DNA from: Amoebophrya sp. A120
Lineage: Eukaryota; Protista; Dinoflagellata
Direction of reading: 5' to 3'
Length of the DNA: 64,000 nucleotides
Assembly: GCA_905178155.1 (NCBI GenBank)
Contig: CAJINV010000022.1
Span: forward strand, 565,799 to 629,798
Part shown: piece after piece, positions 19,039 through 63,844 of the stretch
How positions within the stretch are numbered: the stretch's first letter is position 1
Layout of the letters: every line of letters starts with the position of its first letter
The notes under the pieces: generated by a model
The model's database searches: none
Told to the model about the DNA's origin: nothing
What the model saw: only the letters and a program-made list of their open reading frames with translations
Program-made: the position numbers and the translations under genes

Positions 19039-19050
19039 CCCCTCCTCAAA
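19039..19050 (-). other. Copia polypurine tract
   Basis: Minus strand TTTGAGGAGGGG abuts the 3' LTR. Confidence 0.85.
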
Positions 19051-19199
19051 CTAGCCGAAGGACCTGCTTTTTGCAAATTTAAAGCTTGGAAAATGGCTGG
19101 TCGTGCTAGTTTGCTATTTAGTGGCGTTTTTCTTCTACTAACTCAACTATCTGTATGCTGACCTGTATGCATGCTATGACTTTTACTCGATTTTATGCG

Positions 19200-22619: not shown

Positions 22620-23101
22620 TTTTCACAAACTGGGACGCGAATGCCACTGAGATGAGAAGGCGTGGCCTCAACGGAAAATTAGCGCACTGCTATCCCCGAG
22701 GTCAGAGGGTCTGTGACTCACGATGTCACTCCCGCCTGCGCCCTGGCGATGTCAGTGTCGTCCGTACAGCAATATTTATACACGGAAGTAGAATTATGCA
22801 CATGGGCGTGACGCCTTCTGCTATTTTGTAGCGACTTATCTTGCAGTTAATCTTTTTGCTTTTCAAAAAAAAATATTTGCTTTGTAATGCGGAAACTCAG
22901 ATTTTCCGTGGTTTTTGTGACAAAATCCTTCAAAATTTGTTTTACACAAAGAGAAACCAATAAAAAAATAGAAAAAAAAAATTGTACAGAAATGCGATTG
23001 CAACCAATGAAACGAGATTATACAAAACTTGAATTGTACATTGCGAACTGATATAAATGTGTTTGAAAGTAATTATTTGAAATTGACCACCGCCGCACTA
23101 T

Positions 23102-24502
23102 TCACATTTCCACCTTCTCAGTGGAAGTGCCCCGCGACTGACTGTTGTTGCGGCTTGTGGATTGCTGGTTGCGTCTGATGGTTCCGCTGCCCCGGTTCTG
23201 GCTGGTGTTGCGACTGGTGGATCGGTCCTGTCGCACGAATTTGTTGTCGCGGAATCGCCCACGACTGCGATTGTCGTTGCCCCAGCTCCAGGAACCGTCG
23301 GCGTTCCAGTGCCACGGGCGACCGTACTCGTTGTTGTTGCCGAACTGCGGCTTGGTGTTGTTTTGGTAGTTGTTGCTCCCGGCCGTACGAAAACCGTTGC
23401 CGGTGAATCCGCGCTGCTGTGGGCGGAAGCCAACGAATGCGGTGGCGCCAGCAGCCGCTTTTCCGGCGACGTCGGAAATCCGGTCCGCGAGGATGACCCG
23501 GATCGCGGTCTGCACGTTATTGAGGCGGAAGTCGCCCGCGATTCGTGTCAACAGACCGGTGACCTGGTGCGGTTCCAACTCACCAAGCACCGCCTTGATG
23601 AGATTCAGACCGTGGATCTCGTCGACGGAAATTTTCTCGACCTTTTTCCGCAGACGCTGGTACGTCTGGAGGTCGGTCTGCAGGTGATCGGAGCGGACCG
23701 TAAAGTTGGTGAAGCGCAGCCAGATGGATAGTTTTTCACTATTGCGCCCAGGGTAGATCTCGCCGTTGAGCGCGCTCAGGTAGTCGTCGATGGATTTGAT
23801 CTCCTTGTCGCGGATTGCGTCCTTCAACTCGACCACCTCGATGCTCTGCTTCAACTGGTAGATCAACGTCGAGAAGGGGAGACTACCGGCTACGACGCCG
23901 AAATACTCCCGCACGTCGGTTTCGTACGCGTCGATATCGACCTGATGGCACCGGATATCGTAATCGTCGATCTGGCTACTGTCCAACTTGAGTTTGGGCA
24001 CGGAGAGCTTGGTCGGGTCGACTTGTTTCTGGTATCCGTACGAACTGTTTCCGCGACCAGCGGCCGCTGGGGTGTAAATTTCGTAGTGCTGGGTCCCCTG
24101 CTGTCCGTCGTCGGATTCTTCGGAATCTTCCTCAATTTGCTCCTGACTGCGGTTGGGTTTCAGTTTGAAGACGTCGATGTTCCCGGCGTTGTTTTCCAGG
24201 ATCTCGAGCGCTTGCTTCTTGAGCTCCTTGAGATTTTCCTTCGACAAGTCGGACGCCCCTTCGGTAGCCCGGATCTTGTTCGCCACCCGCGCTACTAATT
24301 TGAGAAAATAGTAGTCTTCGCCCAATTTCAAGAATTGGCTGCGGTTCTGGTCGTTCACCGCAGTCGCGCCGGCCTGGCGCGCGAAGATCTGCCAAACCTG
24401 GTCGCTGCTACCGCAGATGTAGATGTAGCGAGCGCTGTTGATGGTTGCGATGCCTCCCGCTTTGTTTTGCGGATGTCTGCTGTTCTGGGCTGGTGGCGGC
24501 AT
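23102..24502 (-). CDS. gag: Copia Gag (separate ORF)
   Basis: 466-aa ORF just downstream of the 5' LTR/PBS; basic R/S/N-rich tail; no CCHC knuckle seen. Confidence 0.8.
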   Translation of the reverse strand: MPPPAQNSRHPQNKAGGIATINSARYIYICGSSDQVWQIFARQAGATAVNDQNRSQFLKLGEDYYFLKLVARVANKIRATEGASDLSKENLKELKKQALEILENNAGNIDVFKLKPNRSQEQIEEDSEESDDGQQGTQHYEIYTPAAAGRGNSSYGYQKQVDPTKLSVPKLKLDSSQIDDYDIRCHQVDIDAYETDVREYFGVVAGSLPFSTLIYQLKQSIEVVELKDAIRDKEIKSIDDYLSALNGEIYPGRNSEKLSIWLRFTNFTVRSDHLQTDLQTYQRLRKKVEKISVDEIHGLNLIKAVLGELEPHQVTGLLTRIAGDFRLNNVQTAIRVILADRISDVAGKAAAGATAFVGFRPQQRGFTGNGFRTAGSNNYQNNTKPQFGNNNEYGRPWHWNADGSWSWGNDNRSRGRFRDNKFVRQDRSTSRNTSQNRGSGTIRRNQQSTSRNNSQSRGTSTEKVEM

Positions 24503-24579
24503 CTTTATTGCATGTAGTAGTAGTGACTTCAGGATGATAATCGAATGTGTTTTTGGGGATGGGGGTCTTTAGCAAGAGA

Positions 24580-24589
24580 GGCTCATAAC
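24580..24589 (-). other. Primer-binding site complementary to the tRNA-iMet anticodon arm
   Basis: Minus strand GTTATGAGCC 2 nt after the 5' LTR; + strand GGCTCATAAC. Confidence 0.75.
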
Positions 24590-24591
24590 TC

Positions 24592-24960
24592 TGTTGATCG
24601 TGTGATCTTGACCTCCCGAACACACTCCTTCTTCTTCTTCTTACGGGAAACAAAACGCGTCCTTTCCTGATTGTGTTTGCTCAAAACCTTGAGCCAACGG
24701 CTCAAACGAAAATTGTTGTTGTACATGTTTCAGCATGAGAGATTCGCTCTCCACCCGGTTCCAGGGTCTATCTAATGTTCTCTCTCAAAGAAAGAAGAGT
24801 GCGAATAAACTTTTCCCCAAAAACGAATACGAAAGATATTGGAAAAACGATGGATGCGACTAGTCGTGAAAAAACAGATACCGACTAGCGACGACCACGA
24901 TAAGCGAAAAAACAAGCTCTTGACCGATGAGAGATAGGTGTGAACACATTGTGAACAACA
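24592..24960 (-). repeat. Copia 5' LTR
   Basis: Direct repeat of 18670-19038. Confidence 0.97.
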
Positions 24961-29200: not shown

Positions 29201-30953
29201 GAAGAAATCCAGCATCACAAATTTCCTTTTCAATATGGGGAAGGGGGATAATTCTTCCTCAGGATACAGAAAGCCAGATCTGGTCCAGGTTTCTAACTCG
29301 CTGGAGGAACCGAAACTGCAAGAAATCGTGAATCACATCTTGTTATGCAGCGCAAATATACACGCATTTGTTGCTGGAAACTTGTAATGCTGGGGCGTGA
29401 AGAACAGTAAACGCTCTGCATAAATCTAAATACACAGCCAAGCAAGCATGACAAATGTTTGCGCGGCTTGGTGTTGCGTTTTCCGCATGACAAACTGCGT
29501 TTATTTTGCATGCCAAGCAAAAGCAGAGTCTCTTCTCGGACACGCGTCACAGACTCTTTAGTTGTCATGGCACCATACAAGCATATAGAAATAACCTTGC
29601 ATTCTTCCAGACCCAGACCAATATTTGCGGCGCATACCTGTACACCGAAACATTCGAAGAAGTGGAAAACGATGCGGAGTGGCTGTTGCGCAACGCTTTT
29701 GCGGTCCGAGCGGTGATCATCCCGATTTGGCAGGAGATCCGGAGCCGGGCGAAAAATCTCTTCTACAGCTATCAACCGTAAAAATGTCTGGGTCTGGAAG
29801 ATTCTGACACTTGTCATGCACGTTTTGCATGAGCCGTGATGTCTGTGATGCATGCCCTAGCATCACAGATTTTTTGAGAGCTTCTTGATGCCTATTTCGC
29901 ATGACAAATGCCCTCTCCGTGTAGCAAAAATTAAATTTTCTTTTGGCATTCATGCAACACAGATTTTTCTGGAATCCAAATGCAGCATCACAAGTTCCAT
30001 TCTTCCAGACCCAGACACTTTTACATTTGATAACAGCAGCGCGGCCTCGATGAGCCAGTTCGCGGGGTCTGGCTTTGCCGGGACAAAACGGGAGGACTTT
30101 TTGCCACTACAGTTTTCCAACTATGCATTGCAAAAGTAACCTACTAGTAGAAATTGCATGACAAATTTCGGCAAGTTGAAAAGTGGAATTTGTAATGCTG
30201 TCTTACCTTAGGAGGAAGATTTGTCATGCATATTTGCAATTACCTCGAGTGCGATACTTTTGCACAGCACACCAACCTACAGTGGACGAAAGTGGGGATT
30301 CTGATCGCGGAAGTCGATGGTATGGTGAACGCAAACGTCCCGACCGACGCGGTGTATCCCTATTTCCTGCTCACGTTGTACCTGCTCCTAAACTATCAAA
30401 TGCAAAAATGTCTGGGTCTGGAAGGTTGCAACCCAATTTGTACGTTGCGCAAGTGATAGTATATGTAGTAATAGTTAGTTCCACCGGTGGACATATTAGC
30501 ATGCTTAATCTCTCTCTAAATAGTGCAAACACGTAGTTCTCTTTTATTTTCTTTCTTCATAAAGTTCAAGTCGTTCTCTTCCCTGTGCTGTACCAAGGTC
30601 TTGTTTCCAGACAAAACACCAGACATTTTTGCATTTGATATGTACACGAAGCAGGAGATCAAGCCGGCAAAAAATCTGGCGGAGGTCGACTATGCTGTGC
30701 AAAAGTATCTGATACTCGTATTGCATGCATGCATTGCAAATCTATTCCCTAAGGTAAATCAGCATTACAAATTTTCTTTCTCATGCTGAGGAAATTTGTA
30801 ATGCATTTATACGAGTACGATTCTTTTGCAATGCATATCGACGATCACGCACTGATTTGGGCGCAGTACTCCGTGGGGGTGTCGAAGTATCACGACGAGT
30901 ACAATCCATATCCGAAGGAAGAAATGTGGGGAAACGAAATTGCGACTTTCTGA
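26227..30953 (+). CDS. Replication factor C small subunit (RFC2/RFC4-like clamp loader AAA+), 13 introner introns plus one GT-AG intron
   Basis: Spliced model: [75 protein letters not shown]; open to TGA 30951-30953. Canonical intron 27297-27471 (alternative in-frame acceptor 27417). Confidence 0.93.
26360..26548. mobile_element. TIR introner (other family)
   Basis: TATCCCGCA...TGTGGGATA; perfect AGCGA repeat. Confidence 0.9.
26635..26786. mobile_element. TIR introner family B
   Basis: Flanks ACAGA/ACACA; frame restored. Confidence 0.92.
26989..27241. mobile_element. Diverged TIR introner
   Basis: TATGG..GGAAAA..TTGTG / CACAAATTTTCC..CCATA; +5 removal gives IREE-VKPY. Confidence 0.75.
27633..27822. 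mobile_element. TIR introner family B within the SRC motif
   Basis: Flanks CCAGT/TCAGT; removal restores IQ-SRC. Confidence 0.9.
27893..28213. mobile_element. TIR introner family E (C-run/G-run TIR)
   Basis: Perfect TCAAG repeat; related to 38414-38735. Confidence 0.9.
28298..28455. mobile_element. TIR introner family B
   Basis: Flanks CATGG/TATGG; frame restored. Confidence 0.85.
28545..28711. mobile_element. TIR introner family B
   Basis: Perfect CGACC repeat; restores DL-SDGDCRR. Confidence 0.9.
28918..29266. mobile_element. TIR introner family E (diverged)
   Basis: TATGA..AATTCCCC / GGGGGATAATT..GGATA; flanks CACGA/CAGAA; frame restored. Confidence 0.8.
29344..29636. mobile_element. 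TIR introner family A (diverged)
   Basis: TATGCAGCGCAAATAT...ATATTTGCGGCGCATA; flanks CTTGT/CCTGT. Confidence 0.85.
29770..30032. mobile_element. TIR introner family A
   Basis: Perfect ACAGC repeat; very similar to 62492-62753. Confidence 0.95.
30122..30271. mobile_element. TIR introner family B
   Basis: Perfect CCAAC repeat. Confidence 0.9.
30394..30640. mobile_element. TIR introner family A ends with an atypical interior
   Basis: TATCAAATGCAAAAATGTCTGG / CCAGACATTTTTGCATTTGATA; flanks TAAAC/TGTAC. Confidence 0.9.
30691..30837. mobile_element. TIR introner family B
   Basis: Perfect TCGAC repeat. Confidence 0.95.
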
Positions 30954-49159: not shown

Positions 49160-49493
49160 ATGGTCGCCTTTTTGAAGAAAAAGATGCTCGGCTCAATGTT
49201 GGGCCCATGCATGATCTTATTCAGCGCAGGAGCCTCTCGCTTCGCGCTGGCTGCCGCGCCAGGAGCAGCACCTTCTGGAGGAGGTCATGATATTTTTGCA
49301 GTAACCGGCATCGAAGATAGAGGCGCGCTTGAGGTTGTTGGGCGCAGGAGGCCGGCGCCGGCCGCTGGCGAAGATGGTGGTCGCCCAACGAGATTTCTGC
49401 GCCGGACTGTTCCTGATCAGCATGCTAGTAGCGGGTCCAGCTTTTTATGCGACAGAAAAGTACGGACTTATGTTTACCTCTTCAACACGACTG
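49160..49493 (+). pseudogene. MVAFLKKKM.. family copy C 5' exon, interrupted by the Gypsy element
   Basis: Homologous to the copy A/B N-terminus (AGASRFALA, AGEDGG..FLR); the LTR begins at 49494. Confidence 0.6.
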
Positions 49494-50144
49494 TGTGTAT
49501 ATGATTCTTAATGGTTAAGCACGAACTGCCTCTCCACGCAATACAAATCCACTGGTTCAGAATTTTACCGATCTATTTTTCCGATCCTGTTTTACAAATG
49601 TATGATGTTCTTTCTTGGGGAAGTAGGGATCTCATTTTTATCGTATTATCAAATCTGTAATGCAAGTGGCTTTTCTGCTCGCAAATGCCCGATCAAGATG
49701 CTCTTCCGTCGGTGGTAAATCCTGTATGATTTCTAAATGGTTTTTTTTGGATCTTCGTGTATGATTCTCATGGTGTTCAGCCGGTCGCAAGCACTATGGC
49801 ATTTACCAATCGCTTTTCGTGGTCGCGCATTACAAATTCGCACTGTATAATTGTCGCTCTTTCTTTAACTCAATCGTCAAGGCGTCGGAGGGTAAAAATA
49901 GCATTACAAATCGTATTTCGTACTAAATTATAGGAGTAGAATCCGCATTACATCGTGGGGAAACATCGTTTTGGTGCATTACAAATTGGTAGGACATAAA
50001 GACCGATAGGAAACACGGAAACTAACGCACGAACATCGGGGAAAGAAATAAACTGTCGCGAAACCGCACCTGATTGCGGTCTATTTGGATTATTTGGGAT
50101 AATATTTGTGTTCTAACCTCTCCATTTTGAAACTAGATCCTTCA
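49494..50144 (+). repeat. Gypsy 5' LTR
   Basis: Direct repeat at offset 10418; right end inferred from CA followed by the PBS. Confidence 0.85.
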
Positions 50145-50146
50145 AT

Positions 50147-50164
50147 TGGTGGAGAACCTGGGCA
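50147..50164 (+). other. Primer-binding site, probably tRNA-Ala
   Basis: TGGTGGAGAACCTGGGCA is complementary to a ..TCTCCACCA 3' end typical of tRNA-Ala; repeated at 60565. Confidence 0.7.
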
Positions 50165-50407
50165 ATAATTCGACTAGCTGCTTACGATTTACGGCGTAAA
50201 ATTTGCTATACATTATTTACGGTTTGGGGATTATCGATTATCTATTTTACGAGTTTGCAATGCACTATTTACGGTTCTTGGGGTTCTATCACTACTAATT
50301 TTTATCGGGGAAGTAACTTACTGCAAGATATTTTTACTGGTTTCGCTCGGGTTACAGCTTTCTTTGCGTAAATTTAGTCGCGCTGCAATCAGATTGACAA
50401 AAATATT

Positions 50408-53400
50408 ATGTTCTTCGGCCGAACACGAAACTACGAACAACAACGACAAGAAGACACCGACTGGGATTCGCCGGCATCCTTGCCATTAATTTCGGGCTTC
50501 CGCTCTTGCAATCGCGCGGTGCAGCAGCAACCACAAGGGGACCGAACACAGCAACTACAGGAATTTTGGGAACGGGTTAAAACCATTCGCACTAAGCGCC
50601 GGGGGAAAATGGACGACGATATTCCGCATCGGGGTGCACCAACCCCGATGTCACCACTGAGCGCAGTCTCGCTAACGGAGCAAATTATGGCGGAAGTCAG
50701 TACGGCGACGGCTACGCAGCCCAGCGGAGGAAGCACAAACGCCGACCCACCGGCCGCGGCAACTATCACTACTACTCCTACTGCTACCACCAGCGGAGCA
50801 ACGGAAACGGGTGGAACAACCACTACTACTACTGGCATAGCAACTACTACCACGACTACTGGAACAACAACTACCACTACGGGAACAGCTGAGGGAGCGC
50901 GCGACGGAGGAACAACTTCAGGGGAACAGGCGAAAAGCTTCGCGACCCAGGTCATTCGGGGCCTAGTAGTAATGGTAGTCCAGCTGCTATTTTGGGTCAT
51001 TGAACTGGTGGTGACGGTCATCTTCGCCTGCGGGAAAGAAATCTGCGTTCGCACAGCAGGCCTGGCATTCAGCGGAGGAAAATGCGTGATCAACTGGGGA
51101 AAAGAAATTCGGATTAGCGCGGCGGGAATGAAAGCCGATGTTGGCCACACGAGCACAACGCCGGCCCCTGCCGTTACCCCGCCCTTAGTAACCGCCACAA
51201 GAACTTCTACGCCGCCGACTCCAGTCGCCGCCACGCCACCAACCACTACTGCTTCCGGCCAATTGGATAGTAAAAAGCTTATTTTCCTTGGGGTAGAGCC
51301 CACGTCCACCACGTCTCCCGACTCGGTCAGCGGACAGATACTTTACAAAGACTTGAAATTGGCCGGGCTTACAAAAATGCAAGTCTTCGCCCTCCGCACA
51401 CTGGTCCGCAAAGTAGTGAAGGAAAAGTTTGGCCACCGGGTCGACATGATTTTCTCGGAGGGTTCTATCATTGTGGATTGGGCTGCTATTCCGGGCGTCG
51501 ACGACAAGGCAGACAAAACGGATTATGCAAAACCACAACTACCCCGTCTTTCATTCCGGGCGAAAACGCAGAGGGAGGCTGTTTTGGAGATCATCAATTC
51601 CCGCTTTCACCTGCAGACGGTGACACAGCAAAAGCAGTCCTGGCAGACCCTCGATGCAACTGGGACGGCTTTGGCGATTCGAAACAGGATGCAGACGCAG
51701 CTTGCTATCCACCCGTCGGAAGCGTCAGAAGAGTTTTTTGGTGCTGTTCTTTCGGAATTCGTTGAGCAACTCGAAGCCGCATGGGGAATCAACGATCAAC
51801 AGCGGATTACTATCCTACAAGAAATCCTTGACGAGGTCAGCTTCGTGGCAAGAAATGCGCGAGAAGTTGGGTCGAGTTTAATCAGCTTTGTTGCTGGTTA
51901 TCAAGCTGCATTCGGAATGCTCATGTCGGAAAGGGAAAGAACGGGAAATACGTTTTTCCAGCTCACGGCTGAAGTCGGTGCCGATACCGAGCGGAAGCAG
52001 TTTGTGGAAAAACTCAAGTACCGCACTAGCCTGCCGATTTGGGCCCGGACCAAGTTAGACGACTACTTTGGGGACCGTGCTGAACCTGTCGCCGCCCAGT
52101 CTTTACAAAAAGTGCTTGACCGCTTGGCACTGTTGGCGCAGTCGGAACAGTCCAAGAGCAACGCCGACGGCACTGCAAACCCCGGCCAACCGAGTAACTT
52201 CAGCGCGACGCAAACAGCACTGCAGGAGCAACAGCAATACTTGAACCGCGCGGCAGGAGGGCGGCTGCAACCACAAGCAGGCGCGTCGCTGGGTACGGGG
52301 ATGTGCAACGGCAACCACCGCCGGATCCACCACTTCCTTTTCAATCGCCGGGTCGCTGCTGCAGAAAAACAGCTTGGTAGGGGACTGCAAGTGGGATTAT
52401 GTGGGTATTGCAAAAACCACCACAAGGTCGCCGAGCCTGGGGGCGCAATCCTTTGCCCTGATAAAATTTGTGCTGATTCAGATGCAGCTTCGGGTGGGCG
52501 CCCGAACCACCTCCGTTGTGACTTGCATTGCAAGCCCTACGAGTACCTCCCGCATATGACGGCTTATCCGGGTACCCAACAGCAAAATACTAACAGCGCC
52601 GCACCATTTCAGCATCAACAGCAGCAGAGACAGAATTTCTCACAGCAGCAGCAACAACAGCAATTTCGTCCTGGTCCGAATCCGTTCATGCAGAAACCAG
52701 CTCAACAGCAGCAGCAACAATGCTCTCGTCACCAGCAACAGCAGTCCGTCAACGTGGAACAAACTCTTTTGGGCGCAGGATGGAGTGCTGGCACCGGGGG
52801 AAGACAGCAGTCGCAATTCGGAGTGGTCCGGTCAGTCACTGCAACTTCTCTTCCGAGCAGTGAAGGAGAAAGTCCCGGGTTCATGCAAATGGATATTTGT
52901 CATGCATTTTCACAGTCCGCTCCGACAAACAGCAGTGAAAATGTGAAAGACATTTTCGCGCAGTGCGGATGGGTCCCGAAACACGACGATCAGGGGACGA
53001 GGGCAATTTACGGACTCAGGATGTGTAATGCGGGGACGCAAACCTACTGCGCATTTTCTTCGACGAATTCCGACGCGGTTTACTTAAATACTTCGGCGGA
53101 CGAGTTGGAGCGATATTTGGGTGGGGAAGAAATTTCGAAGGAACACATGTGGAGCGCCGAACCGGCCGGGTCTGTTCCGCCTCTATCTCTTGTCGCGAAA
53201 GTCAGCTTGATGTACACAAAATCCAAGGGCTACAATTTTATGGTTCGGAATTCAGGGACGGGATTTTTTGCTGCAAACCTTCCTTTCGACCTGGTGACGT
53301 CGGTCGTCGACGAGACCACGGGCACGGAGTACATTAACGAAGGAGTGCGGGCACACGCGGCGAGCTACTTCAAGAAAACGGAACCGAGCAAAGCACCCCG

Positions 53401-53830
53401 GCCCCGGGGCGTAGTTACCATTGCCGGAAAACAGTACGAAGCTATGCTTGACAGCGCGTGCTGTGTTGGCCCGTGGGATGGTGGTAACAACATGATCAGC
53501 GCGAAGCTTTTGCGGGAATTGAAGAAAAACGCGCCGCAAGTCTTACGGAACCAACAGACCGACGGGGTGGACATTGTGCAGCTGGGGGCGCGCAATCACC
53601 TCGTGCACTACGAGCGGAAACTGGTGGAAATCGAAATTGTTTTTCGCAGCGCCGATGGTACCGAGGAGAAGAAACTGTGGCTGCCTTTCGCGATCGTGGA
53701 TTGGCTTTGCGAAGGGGACGATGTAATTATCGGGCTGCAGACCTTTGAAGAACGACTTGGAGTGGTGTTTATGGGGTCGAAGGTGAAGCTGGAGAAGCTT
53801 GGAATTTGTATTCCTCGCTCTCTATCGTGA
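50408..53830 (+). CDS. gag: Gypsy Gag-protease ORF
   Basis: 1140 aa; Thr-rich tracts, hydrophobic segment, Cys/His cluster, poly-Q, C-terminal aspartic protease AMLDSA..DVIIG. Confidence 0.85.
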   Translation: MFFGRTRNYEQQRQEDTDWDSPASLPLISGFRSCNRAVQQQPQGDRTQQLQEFWERVKTIRTKRRGKMDDDIPHRGAPTPMSPLSAVSLTEQIMAEVSTATATQPSGGSTNADPPAAATITTTPTATTSGATETGGTTTTTTGIATTTTTTGTTTTTTGTAEGARDGGTTSGEQAKSFATQVIRGLVVMVVQLLFWVIELVVTVIFACGKEICVRTAGLAFSGGKCVINWGKEIRISAAGMKADVGHTSTTPAPAVTPPLVTATRTSTPPTPVAATPPTTTASGQLDSKKLIFLGVEPTSTTSPDSVSGQILYKDLKLAGLTKMQVFALRTLVRKVVKEKFGHRVDMIFSEGSIIVDWAAIPGVDDKADKTDYAKPQLPRLSFRAKTQREAVLEIINSRFHLQTVTQQKQSWQTLDATGTALAIRNRMQTQLAIHPSEASEEFFGAVLSEFVEQLEAAWGINDQQRITILQEILDEVSFVARNAREVGSSLISFVAGYQAAFGMLMSERERTGNTFFQLTAEVGADTERKQFVEKLKYRTSLPIWARTKLDDYFGDRAEPVAAQSLQKVLDRLALLAQSEQSKSNADGTANPGQPSNFSATQTALQEQQQYLNRAAGGRLQPQAGASLGTGMCNGNHRRIHHFLFNRRVAAAEKQLGRGLQVGLCGYCKNHHKVAEPGGAILCPDKICADSDAASGGRPNHLRCDLHCKPYEYLPHMTAYPGTQQQNTNSAAPFQHQQQQRQNFSQQQQQQQFRPGPNPFMQKPAQQQQQQCSRHQQQQSVNVEQTLLGAGWSAGTGGRQQSQFGVVRSVTATSLPSSEGESPGFMQMDICHAFSQSAPTNSSENVKDIFAQCGWVPKHDDQGTRAIYGLRMCNAGTQTYCAFSSTNSDAVYLNTSADELERYLGGEEISKEHMWSAEPAGSVPPLSLVAKVSLMYTKSKGYNFMVRNSGTGFFAANLPFDLVTSVVDETTGTEYINEGVRAHAASYFKKTEPSKAPRPRGVVTIAGKQYEAMLDSACCVGPWDGGNNMISAKLLRELKKNAPQVLRNQQTDGVDIVQLGARNHLVHYERKLVEIEIVFRSADGTEEKKLWLPFAIVDWLCEGDDVIIGLQTFEERLGVVFMGSKVKLEKLGICIPRSLS

Positions 53831-56800
53831 CTATCTTTTGAAGACAAAAATTTAGAAAGTTGCAAAACAGGGCTTGCAGCCGGTTTGAAGGGTTTCGCAC
53901 GGTGTACGGCCTCAAACTGCAACACAGCCGCGCGAAAATCAAAACGGAAAAACGAAGGCGAGAAACGGGTCAGATTTTTGCTACCAGGGGAAGCGATTTA
54001 CTTTGAAGTTGGGGAGTACGAAAAACAAGAACTACCGATGGAATTCAAGACCGGACTACGAAAATACCTGTATGATGAAGATAAGAACTACGAAAAGAAC
54101 TCTCCAGCAACAGTACTACAGAACAAGGTCGAAAAAGCGCTACAAATTAAAGCAAAGAATTGGGAACAAGAAGAACGAAAAACAAAGAAGACAGTCCAGA
54201 TTTCGAGCCTTCCGGATGATCGCGAGTTTATTCCGGGCGGGAGTTTTCTTCTCGATCCGACAGCAGTTGGGAACAAGCCGATCCGAAATCCAACTTTTAA
54301 TGCTGGACTATCTAACAGTGAGAACGAAAGACGCAATCTGTTATGCGGGAAACAAGATCTATGGAGCAGCTTTGAAAAGGGAATGGAAATTAACAATCAC
54401 GAACAAGCACTGACAACCAGCACTGAGGAATTAGAATTTTTTCCGCGAGAACGGGAACAAGACGGTGAAGGAATTGCTACACCGGTGACAGAAGAATTTG
54501 AAGACGAGAGTAAAGAAGTAAATTTTTCCGGGGTCCGCAATTTCGAGATGGGGGAAGACGATTTTCAGGTGGGGTTTTCCGGTTTGGGTGGACCTCCCCA
54601 TGAGGTGGACCCAAACAGCAGTACCGCCCTGGAAGGAAAATATCGAATGTGTATGATGAAAGAGGAAGAAGAACTTGACGAACGGAAAGAAGAACTTGAA
54701 GAAGAAGAAGAAGATGCTGCGCTGTCCTGTCCCGACCACCCCAGCAGCGGGAATAGTGAACTACAAAAAGAAATAAAATTGTGTACGATGCAGCAAACAG
54801 TACGAATCCCGAGCGAAGACGAAGTTTGTATCCGGGTGCATTTAGACGAAGAGAAATTTGAACGCAACAAGGTTTACAACCTTCAGGGCCGAGGGGGTGG
54901 AGCGCTTCCGGGATTTGTCATCGAGCCATCAGTGATCGTTCTGACCATGGAAACCGCCTGTATGCCAATCGTTTTACGGGTTTCGCACAGTAGCAGAACT
55001 TCAAGGAAGTTGGGGGTCGCAAGTTTTGTCGTCCGCGAACACTCCGATCGGCCTATCTCAAAGCAGGAAATTGACAGTGCAGTTTTGGGACTATCAATTT
55101 TACCACGCGGGCCGGAGCTCTCGAAAACTTTGTATTGCAATCTTGCAAGAGCTGTGGGGGACGACGGAAATTCAGAACAAGACACTACGAGCCGGGGGCG
55201 CAGTTTCAGTAAAATTCGATCAAGGTTCCACGGAGCCAAGTACAAAAACGAAGAGAACAAGTACAAAGACTTCGAGGAGGAAAAGAAACTTCTGGAAGAA
55301 GAAATTGCGGATAAGAAGTCGAAGTGGAAAGCCGGGGGCGATAAACTTTTACGAACAAGCCAGGAGTGGAAGGACAGGGTCAGAAAAGCACAGGAAGAAA
55401 AATTAGTGGATTTGCCGGAGCCGCTGCGGACACAGATGATCGAGCTGGTGGTGGAAAATGCGGAGCACTTGCATGACGATGGGGCGGAGTTTCCGCAGCT
55501 AAAAGGGATTCTCGCTCGCCACGTCATCAAACCGAACCCGCAGTGGAAAGCAATTCAGCCGTACAAAACCAACCCGCTGGACGAAATACGGACAAAATTT
55601 TTGCTGGAAGAGCATATTTTTGAAAACAAAATCCGGCCGCTCGACCTGAGTAAAGAGCAACCCCCGCCACACACCTCGCCAACACTGGTCGCAGACAGGA
55701 AAAATCATCGGACGCGCCGGCTGGTAGTGGACTACCGATTTTACAACCAACAAGTCGAGGATCAAGCCACAGTAATGCCGCGGGCAGATGATATTTTCAA
55801 AAAGTTGATCCACGGAAACCCGAAGTGGTTCGTCGTTTTGGATTTGTCGATGGGCTATAATCAGATGCTGCTAAGTCCATGCACAGCGCCTTACCTTAGT
55901 TGGTCGACGAAAAGCGGAATTTTTATTCCGGTGCGACTCCCGTTGGGTCCAAAATGGGCACCAGCACTATTCCAGTCTCATACTCAAAATGTTTTTGGGT
56001 TTCTGGAATGGTTGTCGGTGTTCATTGACGACCTGACGCACAACGCAAAGGACGACGAAGAACTGCTACAGCGGGTGGCGGAGTTGTTCAAAAGGTGCAA
56101 GGAAAGTGGGTTTTGCCTGTCTCTTCGGAAGTCAGTCTTTGGGGCGTCTAGTGTCGAAGTTTTGGGATTCGAAATCGACAGAAACGGAAGAACAGTTTGC
56201 GCGAAGAAGAGAAAAGTTTTGCAAATGTGGCCCCTTCCCACTAATTCCGAAGCTTTGAAGTCTCTGTTGTGTTTCAGCAACTACTTACGCGAATTTATTC
56301 CGAGGTTCCCGGACTTGGCTCATGTTCTCCGACCCTACTCCGAAAAGCAAAAAAGGTGGTCTGGGTTTGCACAGGACGCTGAAGCGCAAGACGCACTCGA
56401 AAAGTTGAAGCATGCCCTGGATGCACATGTTTATCTTGTGAGCATCGATGTGGAGGCAGCACGAGCTTGGAGAACGTCGGGGCGGCCAATAGAAGTTTTC
56501 ATCGACGCATCGGACATTGCGTGCTCCTTCGTCGTTACGCAGCGACCAGCACCGCACCAGAAGCCACAACCGGTCTACTTCCAGTCCAAAACCTGGAACC
56601 CGACAGAACGCAGCTGGAGTACGATGGAGAAAGAAATCTTCGCCATGCACTACTGGTGCCTGGAAGGTGCAGATGAGGTTTCTCGCTATGAATATTTGTT
56701 GTACTTCGACCACAAGAACGAAGGTCCGCATGAGATGGCATCTTTGTGGGCTAACACGCGGGTGAGCTCCAAGGTTCGCCGATGGATTTCTGAAATCATG

Positions 56801-59800
56801 GAACGGCTGGGGTCGTGTTACAGAATATTTTTGGCTGGGGAGTGGAACGTCGTTGCCGATGCACTAAGCCGAACTTGGTGGGGACAGCAAGACGCCGACG
56901 CAGAAGAAGTTGCGAACTCCGTGGGGATTCCAAAATATGTGTCCGACTTCATCGAGTTTTTGTTCGACGCCAAGAAGCCAGAAATCGGAAAACAGCATGA
57001 CAAACGGGATTTGGAAGTAGCAACAAAAGTCAGTAGTATGGTTTCCTGCCCTGTTTCACAGCTGATTTTCAACATGTTTGAAAATCCCAACCGATTACGG
57101 GGTCAATTTTTCTTGCAGTTCATGAGCCGTTTTCCGGTTTACGGGTTTCTCCAGTTGCAAAGCAAGTTTTTGCCCGCGATCAGTCACAAACACGCATTGG
57201 AAATTAAGTGCTACAGCACCGACACCAGAGGAAAGGCATGGCATATCGAGGCTAAATGCAAAGTGCAAAAATATAGCTGGAGCAACCTGGTCCGGTTACG
57301 AAAAGCGGACAACGACGACAGACAAGCCCGGTACGATGTTGCGCGCAGTTTCCGGCAGTGGTTGATGACCCTGACACCAAAAGCGGGACACGCTGAAGAA
57401 TTCCGGTGCTACACGGTGCTACCAGATGTTTTTTCGGAATACCGAGGTGACTACGAAATGGATTCGATTAGCAGGACGATTTTGAACTACAATCCGAGTA
57501 CCATGGCGATTCAGTGGCCAGAAGTAGTCTGTCCAAATCCGGTGAAATTAGACACGCTTGCAGTTGGGGGCGAGAGTCACTCCTTCCTCGACGGAGTATA
57601 CAAGTGTAACTGCAAGACGCCTCTAATTCCAGCGCTACTACAAGCTGCGGAACAAGATCAGGACTTTGAAAACCACGAACCACGACCGGACAACAGTGGA
57701 GAAGAATTTGCAGGGGAAGAAGAAGAGTTTTTATTTGCAGCGGACGACGAGGAGTTTTTCCCAGACCCACTCGAAGAACTTTTTGGAGAACCAGCTGAAC
57801 CGGTACAACATGCAGTGCTGGTCGCTGAAGATCCCGCTCGACAAGAGAACGAGATGGAGCTTGAAGCTTCCGATGGCGAACCAGTGGAAGATGAGGAAGA
57901 CGATCTACTACAGGACGCACCGCAAGCAGTACCGGTGGCACACAAAAGTCAACAACAGCAGAAAGCAAAAGCGGGAGAGCAAATACGAAAATTTGCTTGG
58001 GTCGTGTTGAAAGGAGAAGAACCAAAATTGGAACAGTTCGATGCGGGAAAACTTTACAGCGAAATTTGGCACGACGAAAGGAAAACGGGCAAGGCACAGC
58101 ACCTAAAGTGGGTCGCTGCTACTGGGGTCGATCTTCTTGGGGGTGCCGACTTGGTTTGGGATGCTTCCTGGGGTACGCTAAGAGTAGTCCTATTTTTTCG
58201 GGCTAAAGCGAAGAACACCTTTCGCATCCTTTTCGGCCGACCAATCGAAATTTTAGTTGAGGTTGCAGGCAGCTCCGCACAACTTCCCGAAGATATTCGC
58301 AGCAACAGTAAGTACCTGGGGGCGCTGCTGATTGGGAAGAAAAGACTTTTCCAGGAAATAGCAACGGTGGAAATTAGTGTTGCAAGATTGGAACTCGCCC
58401 GGGAACAACGAGGAGATGAACACTACGGGCCAATCTGTCATGCGGTTTCAGCAAAAGACGAGCATGAGGATGATGGGGATTTGGAGTGGTTTGATATTCT
58501 CCTTCGAGAGATGAAGCTACCGCGGAAAGAAGCAAAGAAACTAGCACGCAGACTCCGCATGGGAGATTTCCGATTTGATGATGATGGAGTTTTGGTGCAG
58601 AATGTAGAGGGGGTTTGGTGTACTTGTGTTCCAACTACATTTCAGCTGCATCTACTTCAGGAATCGCATGACAAACACCATGGAACAGTTAGTGCTACTC
58701 TTTCTCGGCTCCGTAATGAAAATCTTTGGTGGGTGGGGATTGAAGCGATGGCGGAAGAGTATTGCGATGTGCGATGCTTAGTATGTGGAATCGAACGGGC
58801 AAAGCAAAGGACCGACGCTTTTTATTTTGCCGACCGGGTTACGCACTTCGGTGAGATTTTCTTCATCGACCACCACGGACCCTACGAACAAAGCCGGCTT
58901 GGAAATAAATACTTGCTGACAGTAGTCGACGCAGCGACGGGCTATGGGTGGATATTTCCGGTTGCCAACACTAGTCTACCTCTTGTTGTTGCGCATTTGA
59001 AAACAGTTTTTCACGACCAGGGGCACTGTACTGCCATTCGCTGCGATAACGGATTTGGAACTCAGAAGGGAGTACTGGGAAAATTTCTGAAGTCGAAGAA
59101 GATTAAGTTTCGACCTGGGTCACGCGAAAATCCACGGGGACAGTGGCCAATCGAATTTCCGCACAAAGATATGAGATGCTTCATCGCTACGAAAATGCGT
59201 TTCATGTCGAAAAAGAATACTTGGGATTTGTATGCTTCGGAACTTCAATGGTTTTGGCGAACTCTTGAACGACCAGCATGGGGAAACAAAAGCGCCCACG
59301 AATTCCGATTCAACGAAAAGCCACGCATGGAGCTGAGTACGGTAGCGAAACGGGTAGAGGAAATTTTTGACGACAACGAGGATGGCCTCGACGTTCTGGA
59401 TTTTAAGACCCGCCAGAAAAACGAAGTTCTTCTACGCCACCGATACCGCCGGGAAAACACTTTTACGCAGAACGACGAGCGGGTCGCGTTGAACAACAAC
59501 ACGCTCTTCCGCGTTGGGGATATCGTCTACTATCACAATATCCGGGCTGAGATTCGGAGGAAGGATATTTTGAGTGGGCTGAACCATGCTGCTTTGTTTA
59601 TGATCAAGCAGGTCATATCTCCTACCACGATGTACTTAGTAGACTGGCGGGACAGCATCGAGCAAATTTCTTTCGTGCAGCCTGTGCACCGAAAAAATTT
59701 GTCATCGACTGGTCTTCGCGTCGAGAACTTCGTCGTGGATTTGAATCGGCAGCACTACTGTGAAGCCGAAAAGTGCAATTATTTTGTCGTGCATTATGAC

Positions 59801-59929
59801 GCTTTTCGCTTACGTTATTTTTATCAAGTAGGAGGAGAAAATTTGTACTGTAGTCGTAAGTTTTTAGAGGACAAAATCAGTGGACTTCGTCAGTTCGTGC
59901 TGGGGGCGGTTTGTGTATATGATTCTTAA
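53831..59929 (+). CDS. pol: Gypsy Pol (RT, RNase H, integrase), same frame as gag-PR after one TGA
   Basis: RLVVDYR, LDLSMGYNQ, VFIDD; IDAS..EKE..DH..ADALSR; H..H..CLVC, FIDHHGP..CDNG..E; the ORF ends 18 nt inside the 3' LTR. Confidence 0.93.
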   Translation, partial: LSFEDKNLESCKTGLAAGLKGFARCTASNCNTAARKSKRKNEGEKRVRFLLPGEAIYFEVGEYEKQELPMEFKTGLRKYLYDEDKNYEKNSPATVLQNKVEKALQIKAKNWEQEERKTKKTVQISSLPDDREFIPGGSFLLDPTAVGNKPIRNPTFNAGLSNSENERRNLLCGKQDLWSSFEKGMEINNHEQALTTSTEELEFFPREREQDGEGIATPVTEEFEDESKEVNFSGVRNFEMGEDDFQVGFSGLGGPPHEVDPNSSTALEGKYRMCMMKEEEELDERKEELEEEEEDAALSCPDHPSSGNSELQKEIKLCTMQQTVRIPSEDEVCIRVHLDEEKFERNKVYNLQGRGGGALPGFVIEPSVIVLTMETACMPIVLRVSHSSRTSRKLGVASFVVREHSDRPISKQEIDSAVLGLSILPRGPELSKTLYCNLARAVGDDGNSEQDTTSRGRSFSKIRSRFHGAKYKNEENKYKDFEEEKKLLEEEIADKKSKWKAGGDKLLRTSQEWKDRVRKAQEEKLVDLPEPLRTQMIELVVENAEHLHDDGAEFPQLKGILARHVIKPNPQWKAIQPYKTNPLDEIRTKFLLEEHIFENKIRPLDLSKEQPPPHTSPTLVADRKNHRTRRLVVDYRFYNQQVEDQATVMPRADDIFKKLIHGNPKWFVVLDLSMGYNQMLLSPCTAPYLSWSTKSGIFIPVRLPLGPKWAPALFQSHTQNVFGFLEWLSVFIDDLTHNAKDDEELLQRVAELFKRCKESGFCLSLRKSVFGASSVEVLGFEIDRNGRTVCAKKRKVLQMWPLPTNSEALKSLLCFSNYLREFIPRFPDLAHVLRPYSEKQKRWSGFAQDAEAQDALEKLKHALDAHVYLVSIDVEAARAWRTSGRPIEVFIDASDIACSFVVTQRPAPHQKPQPVYFQSKTWNPTERSWSTMEKEIFAMHYWCLEGADEVSRYEYLLYFDHKNEGPHEMASLWANTRVSSKVRRWISEIMERLGSCYRIFLAGEWNVVADALSRTWWGQQDADAEEVANSVGIPKYVSDFIEFLFDAKKPEIGKQHDKRDLEVATKVSSMVSCPVSQLIFNMFENPNRLRGQFFLQFMSRFPVYGFLQLQSKFLPAISHKHALEIKCYSTDTRGKAWHIEAKCKVQKYSWSNLVRLRKADNDDRQARYDVARSFRQWLMTLTPKAGHAEEFRCYTVLPDVFSEYRGDYEMDSISRTILNYNPSTMAIQWPEVVCPNPVKLDTLAVGGESHSFLDGVYKCNCKTPLIPALLQAAEQDQDFENHEPRPDNSGEEFAGEEEEFLFAADDEEFFPDPLEELFGEPAEPVQHAVLVAEDPARQENEMELEASDGEPVEDEEDDLLQDAPQAVPVAHKSQQQQKAKAGEQIRKFAWVVLKGEEPKLEQFDAGKLYSEIWHDERKTGKAQHLKWVAATGVDLLGGADLVWDASWGTLRVVLFFRAKAKNTFRILFGRPIEILVEVAGSSAQLPEDIRSNSKYLGALLIGKKRLFQEIATVEISVARLELAREQRGDEHYGPICHAVSAKDEHEDDGDLEWFDILLREMKLPRKEAKKLARRLRMGDFRFDDDGVLVQNVEGVWCTCVPTTFQLHLLQESHDKHHGTVSATLSRLRNENLWWVGIEAMAEEYCDVRCLVCGIERAKQRTDAFYFADRVTHFGEIFFIDHHGPYEQSRLGNKYLLTVVDAATGYGWIFPVANTSLPLVVAHLKTVFHDQGHCTAIRCDNGFGTQKGVLGKFLKSKKIKFRPGSRENPRGQWPIEFPHKDMRCFIATKMRFMSKKNTWDLYASELQWFWRTLERPAWGNKSAHEFRFNEKPRMELSTVAKRVEEIFDDNEDGLDVLDFKTRQKNEVLLRHRYRRENTFTQNDERVALNNNTLFRVGDIVYYHNIRAEIRRKDILSGLNHAALFMIKQVISPTTMYLVDWRDSIEQISFVQPVHRKNLSSTGLRVENFVVDLNRQHYCEAEKCNYFVVHYDAFRLRYFYQVGGENLYCSRKFLEDKISGLRQFVLGAVCVYDS

Positions 59930-60562
59930 TGGTTAAGCACGAACTGCCTCTCCACGCAATACAAATCCACTGGTTCAGAATTTTACCGATCTATTTTTCC
60001 GATCCTGTTTTACAAATGTATGATGTTCTTTCTTGGGGAAGTAGGGATCTCATTTTTATCGTATTATCAAATCTGTAATGCAAGTGGCTTTTCTGCTCGC
60101 AAATGCCCGATCAAGATGCTCTTCCGTCGGTGGTAAATCCTGTATGATTTCTAAATGGTTTTTTTTGGATCTTCGTGTATGATTCTCATGGTGTTCAGCC
60201 GGTCGCAAGCACTATGGCATTTACCAATCGCTTTTCGTGGTCGCGCATTACAAATTCGCACTGTATAATTGTCGCTCTTTCTTTAACTCAATCGTCAAGG
60301 CGTCGGAGGGTAAAAATAGCATTACAAATCGTATTTCGTACTAAATTATAGGAGTAGAATCCGCATTACATCGTGGGGAAACATCGTTTTGGTGCATTAC
60401 AAATTGGTAGGACATAAAGACCGATAGGAAACACGGAAACTAACGCACGAACATCGGGGAAAGAAATAAACTGTCGCGAAACCGCACCTGATTGCGGTCT
60501 ATTTGGATTATTTGGGATAATATTTGTGTTCTAACCTCTCCATTTTGAAACTAGATCCTTCA
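59912..60562 (+). repeat. Gypsy 3' LTR (also 5' LTR of the following copy)
   Basis: Preceded by purine tract GGGGGCGG (59902-59909), followed by a second PBS and gag start. Confidence 0.85.
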
Positions 60563-61590
60563 ATTGGTGGAGAACCTGGGCAATAATTCGACTAGCTGCT
60601 TACGATTTACGGCGTAAAATTTGCTATACATTATTTACGGTTTGGGGATTATCGATTATCTATTTTACGAGTTTGCAATGCACTATTTACGGTTCTTGGG
60701 GTTCTATCACTACTAATTTTTATCGGGGAAGTAACTTACTGCAAGATATTTTTACTGGTTTCGCTCGGGTTACAGCTTTCTTTGCGTAAATTTAGTCGCG
60801 CTGCAATCAGATTGACAAAAATATTATGTTCTTCGGCCGAACACGAAACTACGAACAACAACGACAAGAAGACACCGACTGGGATTCGCCGGCATCCTTG
60901 CCATTAATTTCGGGCTTCCGCTCTTGCAATCGCGCGGTGCAGCAGCAACCACAAGGGGACCGAACACAGCAACTACAGGAATTTTGGGAACGGGTTAAAA
61001 CCATTCGCACTAAGCGCCGGGGGAAAATGGACGACGATATTCCGCATCGGGGTGCACCAACCCCGATGTCACCACTGAGCGCAGTCTCGCTAACGGAGCA
61101 AATTATGGCGGAAGTCAGTACGGCGACGGCTACGCAGCCCAGCGGAGGAAGCACAAACGCCGACCCACCGGCCGCGGCAACTATCACTACTACTCCTACT
61201 GCTACCACCAGCGGAGCAACGGAAACGGGTGGAACAACCACTACTACTACTGGCATAGCAACTACTACCACGACTACTGGAACAACAACTACCACTACGG
61301 GAACAGCTGAGGGAGCGCGCGACGGAGGAACAACTTCAGGGGAACAGGCGAAAAGCTTCGCGACCCAGGTCATTCGGGGCCTAGTAGTAATGGTAGTCCA
61401 GCTGCTATTTTGGGTCATTGAACTGGTGGTGACGGTCATCTTCGCCTGCGGGAAAGAAATCTGCGTTCGCACAGCAGGCCTGGCATTCAGCGGAGGAAAA
61501 TGCGTGATCAACTGGGGAAAAGAAATTCGGATTAGCGCGGCGGGAATGAAAGCCGATGTTGGCCACACGAGCACAACGCCGGCCCCTGCC
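60563..61590 (+). mobile_element. Start of a second Gypsy internal region (PBS, leader, gag 5' part) ending at an N gap
   Basis: Matches 50145-51172; N at 61591. Confidence 0.8.
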
Positions 61591-61975
61591 NCGAGAATTT
61601 GTAATGCGAAGCAGCTTGATCGTCTGGCGGGTCATGGTCATTTTGCATGACAAACCATGTAACAGTTGAGAATGTCACGTTTGAGAACCCCATAACACTG
61701 ACATTCTACAAGCACTGCGGAACGCAGGCTTCGAGCCAGATCACGGTGTACTAGATCCAAACGTCGACTCCCTCGTGTATGAACATGGAAAAAAATTTAA
61801 GTCAACCAGGACACAAAGTTTTTGATATCCAGAGCTCATCGATAGTTCATGTAAAAGAGGAGCTCTCAAACTCAACTTCTGCAGCGGGTGCTCATAAACT
61901 GCTCCGTAATAAGTAAGTATAATGGGCTTAGGCTCCTGCGCAACAGGAGGCGCTGAGATAGAATCTTGAATGTAG

Positions 61976-63844
61976 TTGCAGCTGCTTGACTCCTCCCAAT
62001 TTTCCCACGATTCTGCAGTGGACGATGACGACCCTCGGCCGACCTGGTTGGACGGTGTGGAGACGCGGACCAGGCAGGTGCATTATGCTGTGCAAAAGTA
62101 TCGTACTCTTATTGCAATCATGCATTACAAATCTTTTCGTTATAGGGAAATCCGCATTACAAATTTTAGTTCTCATGCTGAGAAAATTTGTAATGCATTT
62201 ATACGAGTACGATACTTTTGCAGTTCATATGCATGCGCAGCGGACAATCCGAGATAGCACAGGACAACCTCGGACTATTCGCTACACCGAGTACGGCCTG
62301 CACCGCAAAGTTTACCTCCGCAAACTGCCCGAAATTTTGCCGCTCCACGTGAACCGCTTCACATACCAGACTGACGGAACAAGCATCACCAGGAAAAAAA
62401 TGCAGTATCTGGACATTCCCTTTCTATTCTACATCGACGCCCAGGCGAGAAGAAATGGTGGTCAAAGCGGCATCAACACGGAGTTTGAACGTATCAACTG
62501 TAAAAATGTCTGGGTCTGGAAGATTCTGACACTTGTCATGCACGTTTTGCATGAGCCCTGATGTCTGTGATACATGCCCTAGCATCACAGATTTTTTGAG
62601 AGCTTCCTGTTGCCTATTCCGCATGACAAATGCCCTCTCCGCGTAGCAAAAATTACGTTCCTTTTGGTACTCATGCAATACAGATTTTTCTGGAATGCAA
62701 ATGCAGCATCACAAGTTGCAATCTTCCAGACCCAGACACTTTTGCACTTGATAGAACGTGCGCGAGTGCGAAATCCCAAATCCCCTGAGGACGCACGCGA
62801 CTACAGAGATATCAAATGCAAAAATGTCTGGGTCTGGAAAATTGCCAGGTTTGTCATGCATATTTTGAATGACCCATGATGTCTGTGATGCATGCCCTAG
62901 CATCACAGATTTTTAGAGGACTTTGCGATGCCTCCACCGCATGAGAAATGCCCTCTCCACGTAGCACAAACTAGAGTCCTTTTGCTGGTCATGCAATACA
63001 AATTCTTCTAGAATCCAGAGACAGCATTACAAGTTTAGAATCTTCCAGACCCAGACATTTTTACGTTTGATAAGAGAGTGGGAAAGGCAAGTGCAGGAAC
63101 GGGGCATGGAAGCTGTGTCGCAGGCGTACGAATATCCTCTGCAAAAGTATCGCACTCGTATAAATGCGAATCTTGCATTACAAATCTTTTTATCAAGGCA
63201 AATCCGCATGACACATTCCATTTCTCATGCTAAGGAAATCTGTATTGCAATTAATACTAGTACGACACTTTTGCAATGCATAACGAACTGCATGCGGTGA
63301 TTTTGCACCACGGTCCAAGGGCCAATGCCGGCCACTACACGGCGGTTGTGAACATCGGTACGCAGCAATCTCCGCAGTGGCGACATTTCGACGACGGGCG
63401 TGTGATAGTCATCCCGACTACTACTGGCTCTTTGTATCAAATGCAAATATTTGCTTGGGTGTCGAAGAAGATTGCAAGGCTTGTATTATTCAAGTTTTCC
63501 ATGCCCAATGAGGTTGAGGTCTGGAAAAATGCGGGGCGTAGCATGACAGATTCTGTGCGGTCTTTCTATTTGTCATGCCTGTTCTGCATGACAAACTCCT
63601 TCTAACCTTGAGCAAAATTAATAGGGCAACTCTTAGGTGTCATGCACAGGATGCATCACAAGTTAGCGCCGTTTTTTGTTTATTTCCAGACCCAGACAAA
63701 TGCGCAGTGCATACTTTGAGCGGATACCTGAAAGAACGAAACGCGGAGGGAAAGACTGTGTGCATGCTTCTGTACAAAAAGCCCAGGCATAGCACTGGTT
63801 TCGTGCTCTCTGGGCCAAAACGGGTCGCACAGCAGCGACGGTGA
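61976..63844 (+). CDS. USP paralogue, C-terminal part, with 5 introners
   Basis: Spliced model colinear with ORF 1497 (DPRPTWLDG, YGLHRKVYLRKLPEIL, YELHAVILHHG..GHYTA..WRHFDD, MLLYKK); ends GFVLSGPKRVAQQRR*. Confidence 0.85.
62084..62229. mobile_element. TIR introner family B
   Basis: Perfect TGCAT repeat; empty site in the first USP. Confidence 0.95.
62492..62753. mobile_element. TIR introner family A
   Basis: Perfect GAACG repeat; empty site in the first USP. Confidence 0.95.
62810..63072. mobile_element. TIR introner family A
   Basis: Perfect AGAGA repeat; empty site in the first USP. Confidence 0.95.
63133..63282. mobile_element. TIR introner family B
   Basis: Perfect ACGAA repeat; restores YE-LHAVILH. 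Confidence 0.95.
63435..63713. mobile_element. TIR introner family A
   Basis: Perfect CTTTG repeat; frame restored. Confidence 0.9.

Follow-up and report, generated by a model that had tools for sequence, protein, structure and literature searches.

A long terminal repeat (LTR) retrotransposon of the Ty3/Gypsy type was examined in a 64,000-nucleotide stretch of the genome of the dinoflagellate Amoebophrya sp. A120 (contig CAJINV010000022.1, positions 565,799 to 629,798 of the forward strand; hereafter the window, with all coordinates counted from its first base). The element carries two open reading frames (ORFs), the first encoding Gag and a predicted protease and the second the remainder of Pol, and programmed or leaky readthrough of the UGA between them is judged the best reading of the junction, at a probability slightly above even. 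When the frames were re-read, ORF1 and ORF2 proved to share one frame, interrupted in 3,173 codons by a single stop, a TGA (53828-53830) with CTA TCT behind it. Past this TGA, an in-frame ATG does not occur until 54038, codon 70; the first-pass annotation of the window, which had described one frame, a lone stop and no ATG close to the start of pol, was thereby confirmed on these points. Frames, stop, context and domain order were read directly from the element. The lone stop, the lack of a frameshift and the position just past the protease favor readthrough. The literature searches returned, among the matches listed, nothing on readthrough in Amoebophrya retroelements.

Results and Discussion

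The stop codon and its context

UGA-CUA, which had been called a leaky context, constitutes the type II readthrough motif (PMC3159437). Type II signals consist of UGA followed by CUA or CGG, and reporters with the alphavirus context by itself showed 0.2-2% readthrough (PMC3159437). The codon upstream of the TGA is TCG. Homology to two relatives, P0123 and P0003, stops at the residues IPR, after which three sense codons lead to the TGA. The joint chance of the position and the context of the stop is small: of the 1,273 single-base nonsense changes possible in the element, 3 would give TGA-CTA, 14 TGA-CT and 60 TGA-C (0, 4 and 20, respectively, of the 323 transition-only outcomes), and about 10 of the 3,173 codons sit as near the end of the protease as the TGA does, the windows for both context and position having been picked after the data were seen.

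The reading frame past the stop is open for about 320 codons up to the next predicted domain (p ~2e-9 by chance), including the 69 codons between the TGA and the first ATG (chance 0.0115). A codon score, built from other regions of this element and compared with single-base shuffles, gave the 69-codon stretch 0.103 per codon in frame vs. 0.092 near the reverse transcriptase (RT) and -0.05 and -0.13 for the two alternative frames; the in-frame value was matched by none of 2,000 shuffles and none of 500 stop-free shuffles. The 5' leader of the element scored -0.28, and the gag-pol spacer of a Copia element elsewhere in the window scored -0.16 to -0.27. The 69-codon stretch is translated together with ORF1, or was until recently, and its coding-like character therefore disfavors an intron or an internal start. 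Two slippery-like heptamers occur in 53700-53900, both downstream of the TGA, and neither is needed for a junction in one frame. A search of 49400-61600 against Rfam (E <=1) gave no matches, hence no element resembling a selenocysteine insertion sequence.

Predicted protease upstream of the stop

The protease is predicted to lie before the TGA. It was undetected in a Pfam scan, and profile searches of PDB sequences and Pfam likewise returned nothing for it; the prediction comes from a structure model of 53000-53827 with a mean predicted local distance difference test (pLDDT) value of 52. In a Foldseek search with this model, retropepsins occupied every one of the 50 PDB rows listed (lowest E 1.1e-3, so that no row reached 1e-3), VIA-align matched the protease of equine infectious anemia virus (Z 8.9, root-mean-square deviation (rmsd) 2.5, 87 residues aligned), and BFVD contributed three viral matches at E <1e-3. 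Atlas features also point to a protease, as a lead only.

A protease ahead of a readthrough stop had been considered unusual, which was half right, since the same layout prevails in one group, the plant Retand elements, and is also found in Ogre. The arrangement GAG-PROT:stop:RT-RH-INT accounts for 351 Retand elements (49%) and for 14% of Ogre, compared with 12% of Retand in a single ORF (PMC6317226). The dominance of this layout in Retand indicates that it is viable; the Gag-protease, stop, pol arrangement itself is thus already known and is common in one plant family.

In the proposed mechanism, most ribosomes on the genomic RNA would terminate at the UGA; in a few per cent, a near-cognate tRNA, favored by the CUA context, would deliver an amino acid, and translation would continue for 2,032 codons. 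The outcome would be much Gag-protease and little full-length polyprotein; the Gag part of the fusion would bring RT and integrase into the particle, and the protease, present 1:1 with Gag, would release RT and integrase from the fusion. Because folding gave no downstream RNA structure (described below), the local context, or an unseen feature as in the Candida albicans element Tca2, would have to serve as the signal.

Evidence weighing against readthrough

RNA folding, the relatives of the element and the metagenome contigs each supply points that weigh against readthrough. Regarding folding, the first-pass annotation had placed a possible stem downstream of the stop, and its arms are indeed present, one at 53883 and one at 53910; they pair in an isolated fold of the 66-nt piece 53865-53930. 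The claim fails on stability, the piece being no stabler than its shuffles (z -0.14, with 79 of 200 shuffles as good), and on pairing, as the six checked stem pairs have a probability of 0.0 in the ensemble of the 150 nt 3' of the stop, whose folding had been suggested as a check. The 100 nt past the stop gave z -1.07, or -1.4 (30 shuffles), and 22% of 63 windows across the element reach z -1.07; windows of 120-300 nt past the stop gave z from -0.7 to +0.8. The stem would begin 52 nt past the stop vs. 8-9 nt in alphaviruses, where the conserved stem lifts readthrough 3- to 14-fold (PMC3159437). A downstream stem is therefore not supported.

Eight relatives of the lineage, 30-57% identical to the window element, were read at the junction, and five were counted. 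P0003, P0139 and P0005 were left out: P0139 ends inside the protease, P0005 starts after it, and the P0003 gene model skips ~320 residues from the protease end to the domain ahead of RT, including the first strand of that domain, such that a predicted intron in the model may hide the junction. In all five that were counted (P0123, P0140, P0141, P0006 and the metagenome locus L001), a sense codon occupies the position of the stop; TGA-CTA, whose conservation in related families had been proposed as a check, is thus absent there in these five distant relatives. P0123, whose Gag and protease are the closest (36-37% identity), runs on for 77 residues past the stop position and P0140 for 68, both ends being unexplained; P0141 is a gene model that ends short of RT; and P0006 and L001, which form a distant branch, stay in a single frame from Gag to RNase H inclusive. 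Judged from these sequences, the stop is not lineage-wide. Additionally, the Leu after the TGA aligns with a Leu in P0123, in a weak alignment, and part of the stop context may be inherited coding sequence. For no member of the near branch does DNA sequence show an unbroken run between protease and RT, and the records of three relatives (P0005, P0140 and P0141) end or start between protease and RT with no visible cause, which is a weak point for readthrough.

An exact search of metagenome contigs for the 25 nt past the stop gave no matches, leaving a second copy of the junction unseen. Three identical contigs of one sequencing run cover 54041-54800, none of them across the stop, and show no joints; from three RNA runs with the same species label, no reads aligned. 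That the contigs start near the ATG at 54038 counts as no evidence, as contigs cannot show ends.

Alternative explanations

A recent nonsense mutation would account for much of the above. The family would then have a single Gag-protease-Pol frame, and this copy would have acquired a stop that fell by chance after the protease, leaving it dead for Pol or reliant on intact copies, that is, an ordinary broken copy. All five relatives with a readable junction have a sense codon there and two are single-ORF through RT, folding found no stimulatory structure, and the coding-like 69 codons fit such a mutation equally well. New wheat copies average ~0.3 in-frame stops, and ~30-40% of them are estimated to be dead on arrival (PMC9744471). 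The identical repeats of the window element, perhaps an assembly duplication (an N stands at 61591), give the copy no date. However, a random stop would fall within ~10 codons of the protease end in ~0.3% of cases (10/3,173) and have the TGA-CT context in 1.1% (14/1,273), and looser windows (any domain boundary; TGA-C, 4.7%) still multiply to a small product. The relatives are also only 30-57% identical, and junction strategy varies even within Retand, with 49% stop vs. 12% single ORF (PMC6317226). A private mutation is regarded as the strongest alternative account of the junction, though a rather unlikely one.

It is improbable that the stop is inherited and Pol is produced from another RNA or start, whether through a stop-removing intron, the route known from Ogre elements (PMC6317226), through a spliced-leader or internally started RNA using the ATG at 54038, or through a non-canonical bypass of the Tca2 type. 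Non-canonical introns are numerous in Amoebophrya, which also uses a spliced leader (PMC7789003), GT dinucleotides are present in the final 70 nt of ORF1, the Copia element of the window splits gag and pol by an AT-rich spacer and gives pol its own ATG, and the Tca2 junction gave no readthrough in yeast and contains a minor promoter (PMC2194720); against this, no stop interrupts the codons up to the first ATG, and they score as coding, which neither the 5' leader nor the Copia spacer does. Lower still, and very improbable, stands the explanation that the TGA is no regulated stop, either because the host reads UGA as Trp or because the base is an assembly error. The nearest named relative comes from Amoebophrya AT5.2, UGA is decoded as Trp in a context-dependent manner by Amoebophrya sp. 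ex Karlodinium veneficum (PMC6394959), and an assembly gap lies nearby in the window. Yet the element contains 54 TGG codons, one TGA and no TAA or TAG in 3,173 codons, a count that is partly circular in stop-defined frames, whereas in the strain with UGA as Trp, roughly half of the genes are free of stops and those that contain stops have a mean of 13.6 per 549 aa (PMC6394959; bioRxiv 2024.09.05.611473). In that strain UGA seems to be the sole terminator (PMC6394959), yet the window's two pol frames terminate at TAA and TAG. As for an assembly error, two sequencing runs, which may be the assembly's own data, contain a share of 1.00 of 308 sampled words, of which ~3 are expected across the stop.

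Readthrough thus remains the most likely reading by position, context and the coding-like 3' sequence, as the first-pass annotation had proposed, with the sense codons in five relatives standing against it. If it is true, Gypsy elements have more than once placed the expression switch behind the protease instead of behind Gag, here outside plants, and the element would offer a compact, structure-free junction for studying stop bypass; no such experiment on Retand was found in the literature consulted. Readthrough here would likewise matter for the question of how leaky stop codons are in Amoebophrya, a genus with one strain in which all three of them are decoded as sense.

Comparison with known systems

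The window element shares the stop-after-protease layout with the plant Retand elements (Ty3/gypsy, Tat lineage; RIRE2, Tat4-1 and Cinful-1) (PMC6317226). Retand elements have a long region between POL and the 3' LTR with an antisense ORF (TRP28) (PMC11963269), whereas the pol stop of the window element lies inside the 3' LTR and the region is missing. The primer binding site (PBS) of Retand corresponds to tRNA-Lys or tRNA-Arg (PMC6317226), in contrast to the tRNA-Ala-like site of the window element, typed by a tRNA identity rule. The additional RNase H (aRH) that Retand/Tat elements carry between RNase H and integrase was not detected in the window element by Pfam at E <=5, and the RT of the window element sits on a separate branch in a tree with no labelled Retand. 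Because its pol extends into the LTR, its PBS is unlike theirs and its RT branches apart, the element is Retand-like in layout yet not a Retand.

A second comparison is with the fission-yeast elements Tj1, Tcry1 and Tosmo1-3, in which TGA-CT is conserved between gag and protease (bioRxiv 2022.12.06.519325), and in Tj1 the stop is required for transposition (PMC4600332). Like the window element, they have an in-frame TGA followed by CT(A/G) and a pol without an AUG nearby; their stop, however, stands before the protease and is preceded by GAA, rather than after it and preceded by TCG. With the type II viral signals the window element has UGA-CUA in common, and it differs from them in having no supported stem (PMC3159437). 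Tca2 (Ty1/copia, gag-UGA-pol) likewise has a lone in-frame UGA, and its pol is made from the gag-pol RNA (PMC2194720). Unlike the window element, it is a Copia element with the protease downstream of the stop; as its junction alone was without readthrough in yeast, it illustrates that bypass of a stop is possible without local signals (PMC2194720).

A domain with a predicted Tpt1-like fold ahead of the protease

Between the Gag knuckle and the protease, ORF1 is predicted to contain a domain with an ADP-ribosyltransferase (ART)-like fold. In VIA-align, residues 16-116 of the model (pLDDT ~56-71) matched the nicotinamide adenine dinucleotide (NAD) lobe of mouse TRPT1 (7yw2_A; Z 9.3, rmsd 2.5, 95 aligned), yeast Tpt1 (7yw4; Z 7.9), the Tpt1-family structure 9ld3 (Z 7.5) and many further ADP-ribosyltransferase folds, a best Z of 7-8 being typical of unmatched models. 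The domain is kept in P0123 and P0003. It lies upstream of the stop and therefore would be made at the level of Gag.

Profile searches of PDB sequences and Pfam with 53045-53347 gave no sequence-level match. The HGT and RNA-lobe patterns (the latter with catalytic Arg-His) were found in none of seven proteins between knuckle and protease, and SGxR was found in one of the seven (P0140) and is absent from the window element; HGT and SGxR are motifs of Tpt1 according to PMC10415124. The domain is thus alike to Tpt1/TRPT1/KptA in the predicted fold of the NAD lobe and differs in being without the RNA lobe, HGT and SGxR. Judged from these motifs, phosphotransferase activity of the domain is unlikely, and its Tpt1-like fold, predicted in one model of moderate confidence, is a lead. 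KptA occurs in a few viral polyproteins (PMC9503650), and the literature searches gave, among the matches listed, no Tpt1 in a Gypsy element; the domain may be a more original lead than the stop.

Lineage and relatives

The element was classified as Ty3/Gypsy-type from its sequence: the LTRs have TG...CA ends, the PBS adjoins the 5' LTR, the order of domains is protease, RT, RNase H, integrase, and the named RT-RNase H matches are Tf2- and K02A2.6-like, i.e., Gypsy. The nearest named relative is a gene model from Amoebophrya AT5.2, with 57% identity across RT-RNase H. A quick tree of 50 rows (the window element, L001 and 48 of 120 listed proteins), with branch support from the Shimodaira-Hasegawa-like approximate likelihood ratio test (SH-aLRT) instead of a bootstrap and without a non-Gypsy outgroup, placed the window element together with P0003 and P0005; P0006 and L001 form the sister group, and the whole set stands apart on a long branch (SH-aLRT 100). 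The window element and these four marine or Amoebophrya relatives fell far from four plant-named rows, there being no labelled Retand among the rows. The lineage appears separate and deep-branching, and it is probably one of Amoebophrya.

A scan of metagenomes with the RT alignment yielded nine loci, of which L001 alone belongs to this lineage; the other eight, distant and mostly broken fragments, were dropped. L001 (1-8255) has a single frame that stays open for 2,364 codons, spanning Gag to RNase H, with a frame change at a G run just ahead of the integrase core. Scans of viral contigs for relatives gave no match, nor did ORF2 residues 300-690 when compared with proteins 379-1,208 aa long, and the literature searches gave no description of this element among the matches listed. 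On a more far-reaching and rather unlikely reading, the element would represent an undescribed Gypsy lineage of syndinian parasites that evolved the Retand layout independently, with a leaky UGA-CUA after the protease, no RNA structure, and a Gag-level precursor that would carry a degenerate Tpt1-like ART-fold domain together with the protease, all in a genus whose stop codons are known to be labile in meaning.

Architecture of the element

The features of the element are listed in Table 1. The complement of the PBS resembles the 3' end of tRNA-Ala (G3:U70 with A73, the identity rule for this tRNA), presumably indicating that type of primer. ORF1 is homologous to P0123 and P0003, and its parts follow the order Thr-rich and hydrophobic N-terminal extension, Gag core, Cys/His knuckle, Gln-rich linker, ART-fold-like domain and protease. 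In the N-terminal extension, a hydrophobic stretch of 19-21 aa (50963-51025, +; mean hydropathy 2.6) follows the Thr-rich tract and is possibly a membrane anchor; such a stretch is also present in P0006.

Table 1. Features of the Ty3/Gypsy-type element, in window coordinates
Feature	Position	Strand	Remarks
5' LTR	49494-50144	+	651 bp, TG...CA ends; exact repeat of 59912 onward
PBS	50147-50164	+	begins 2 nt past the 5' LTR
ORF1	50408-53830	+	1,140 aa from ATG 50408; stop-to-stop span 50378-53830
Cys/His-rich knuckle-like Gag region	52400-52540	+	kept in P0123 and P0003; putative nucleocapsid role
ART-fold-like domain (predicted, like the Tpt1/TRPT1 NAD lobe)	53045-53347	+	from fold comparison
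Retropepsin-type aspartic protease	53387-53818	+	DSA motif, Asp at 53450; predicted fold
TGA and following CTA, candidate readthrough site	53828-53833	+	only in-frame stop
ORF2 (pol without protease)	53831-59929	+	2,032 codons; TAA terminator inside the 3' LTR
Acidic low-complexity linker	53831-54796	+	open, coding-like; ~320 codons; first ATG 54038
Mostly-beta domain ahead of RT	54797-55150	+	common to P0003 and P0141
RT	55709-56176	+	Pfam RVT_1, E 1.5e-15
RNase H	56483-56797	+	Pfam RT_RNaseH, E 2.8e-12
Integrase zinc finger and core	58667-59134	+	Pfam rve, E 5.5e-6, below curated cut-off; motif positions
Candidate polypurine tract	59902-59909	+	short purine-rich tract preceding the 3' LTR; putative role
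3' LTR (to 60562), second PBS, start of second gag	59912-61590	+	1,679 bp identical to 49494-51172; cut off by N at 61591

The structure model of the mostly-beta domain ahead of RT (pLDDT 60) had no significant fold match. A dUTPase-like identity, considered from a sequence pattern, was unconfirmed, the best Foldseek match (E 0.055) being to unrelated chaperones. From RNase H to integrase, ~600 aa (56891-58690, +) gave no Pfam family at E <=5, and P0003 partly conserves the stretch. The repeat at 59912-61590 may be a head-to-tail tandem copy or an assembly duplication, and LTR identity therefore gives no age for the copy. On the 3' side, where a target site duplication would be expected, the LTR leads directly into this second copy and the N.

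Other features of the window

The window also contains an intact young Copia element (18670-24960, -) with identical 369-bp LTRs and a 5-bp target duplication. Beyond the end of its gag at 23102 lies an AT-rich spacer of ~540 nt, and its pol has its own ATG in a different frame, a split gag/pol layout that resembles that of plant Bianca elements (PMC6317226). Additionally, dispersed repeats of 60-270 bp occur in both orientations across the whole window (e.g., 654-916, 14279-14547, 29770-30032 and 62492-63282). They are possibly introner elements or similar to miniature inverted-repeat transposable elements, as in Amoebophrya (PMC7789003), and some of them fall between pieces of ubiquitin C-terminal hydrolase (UCH)-like protease genes.

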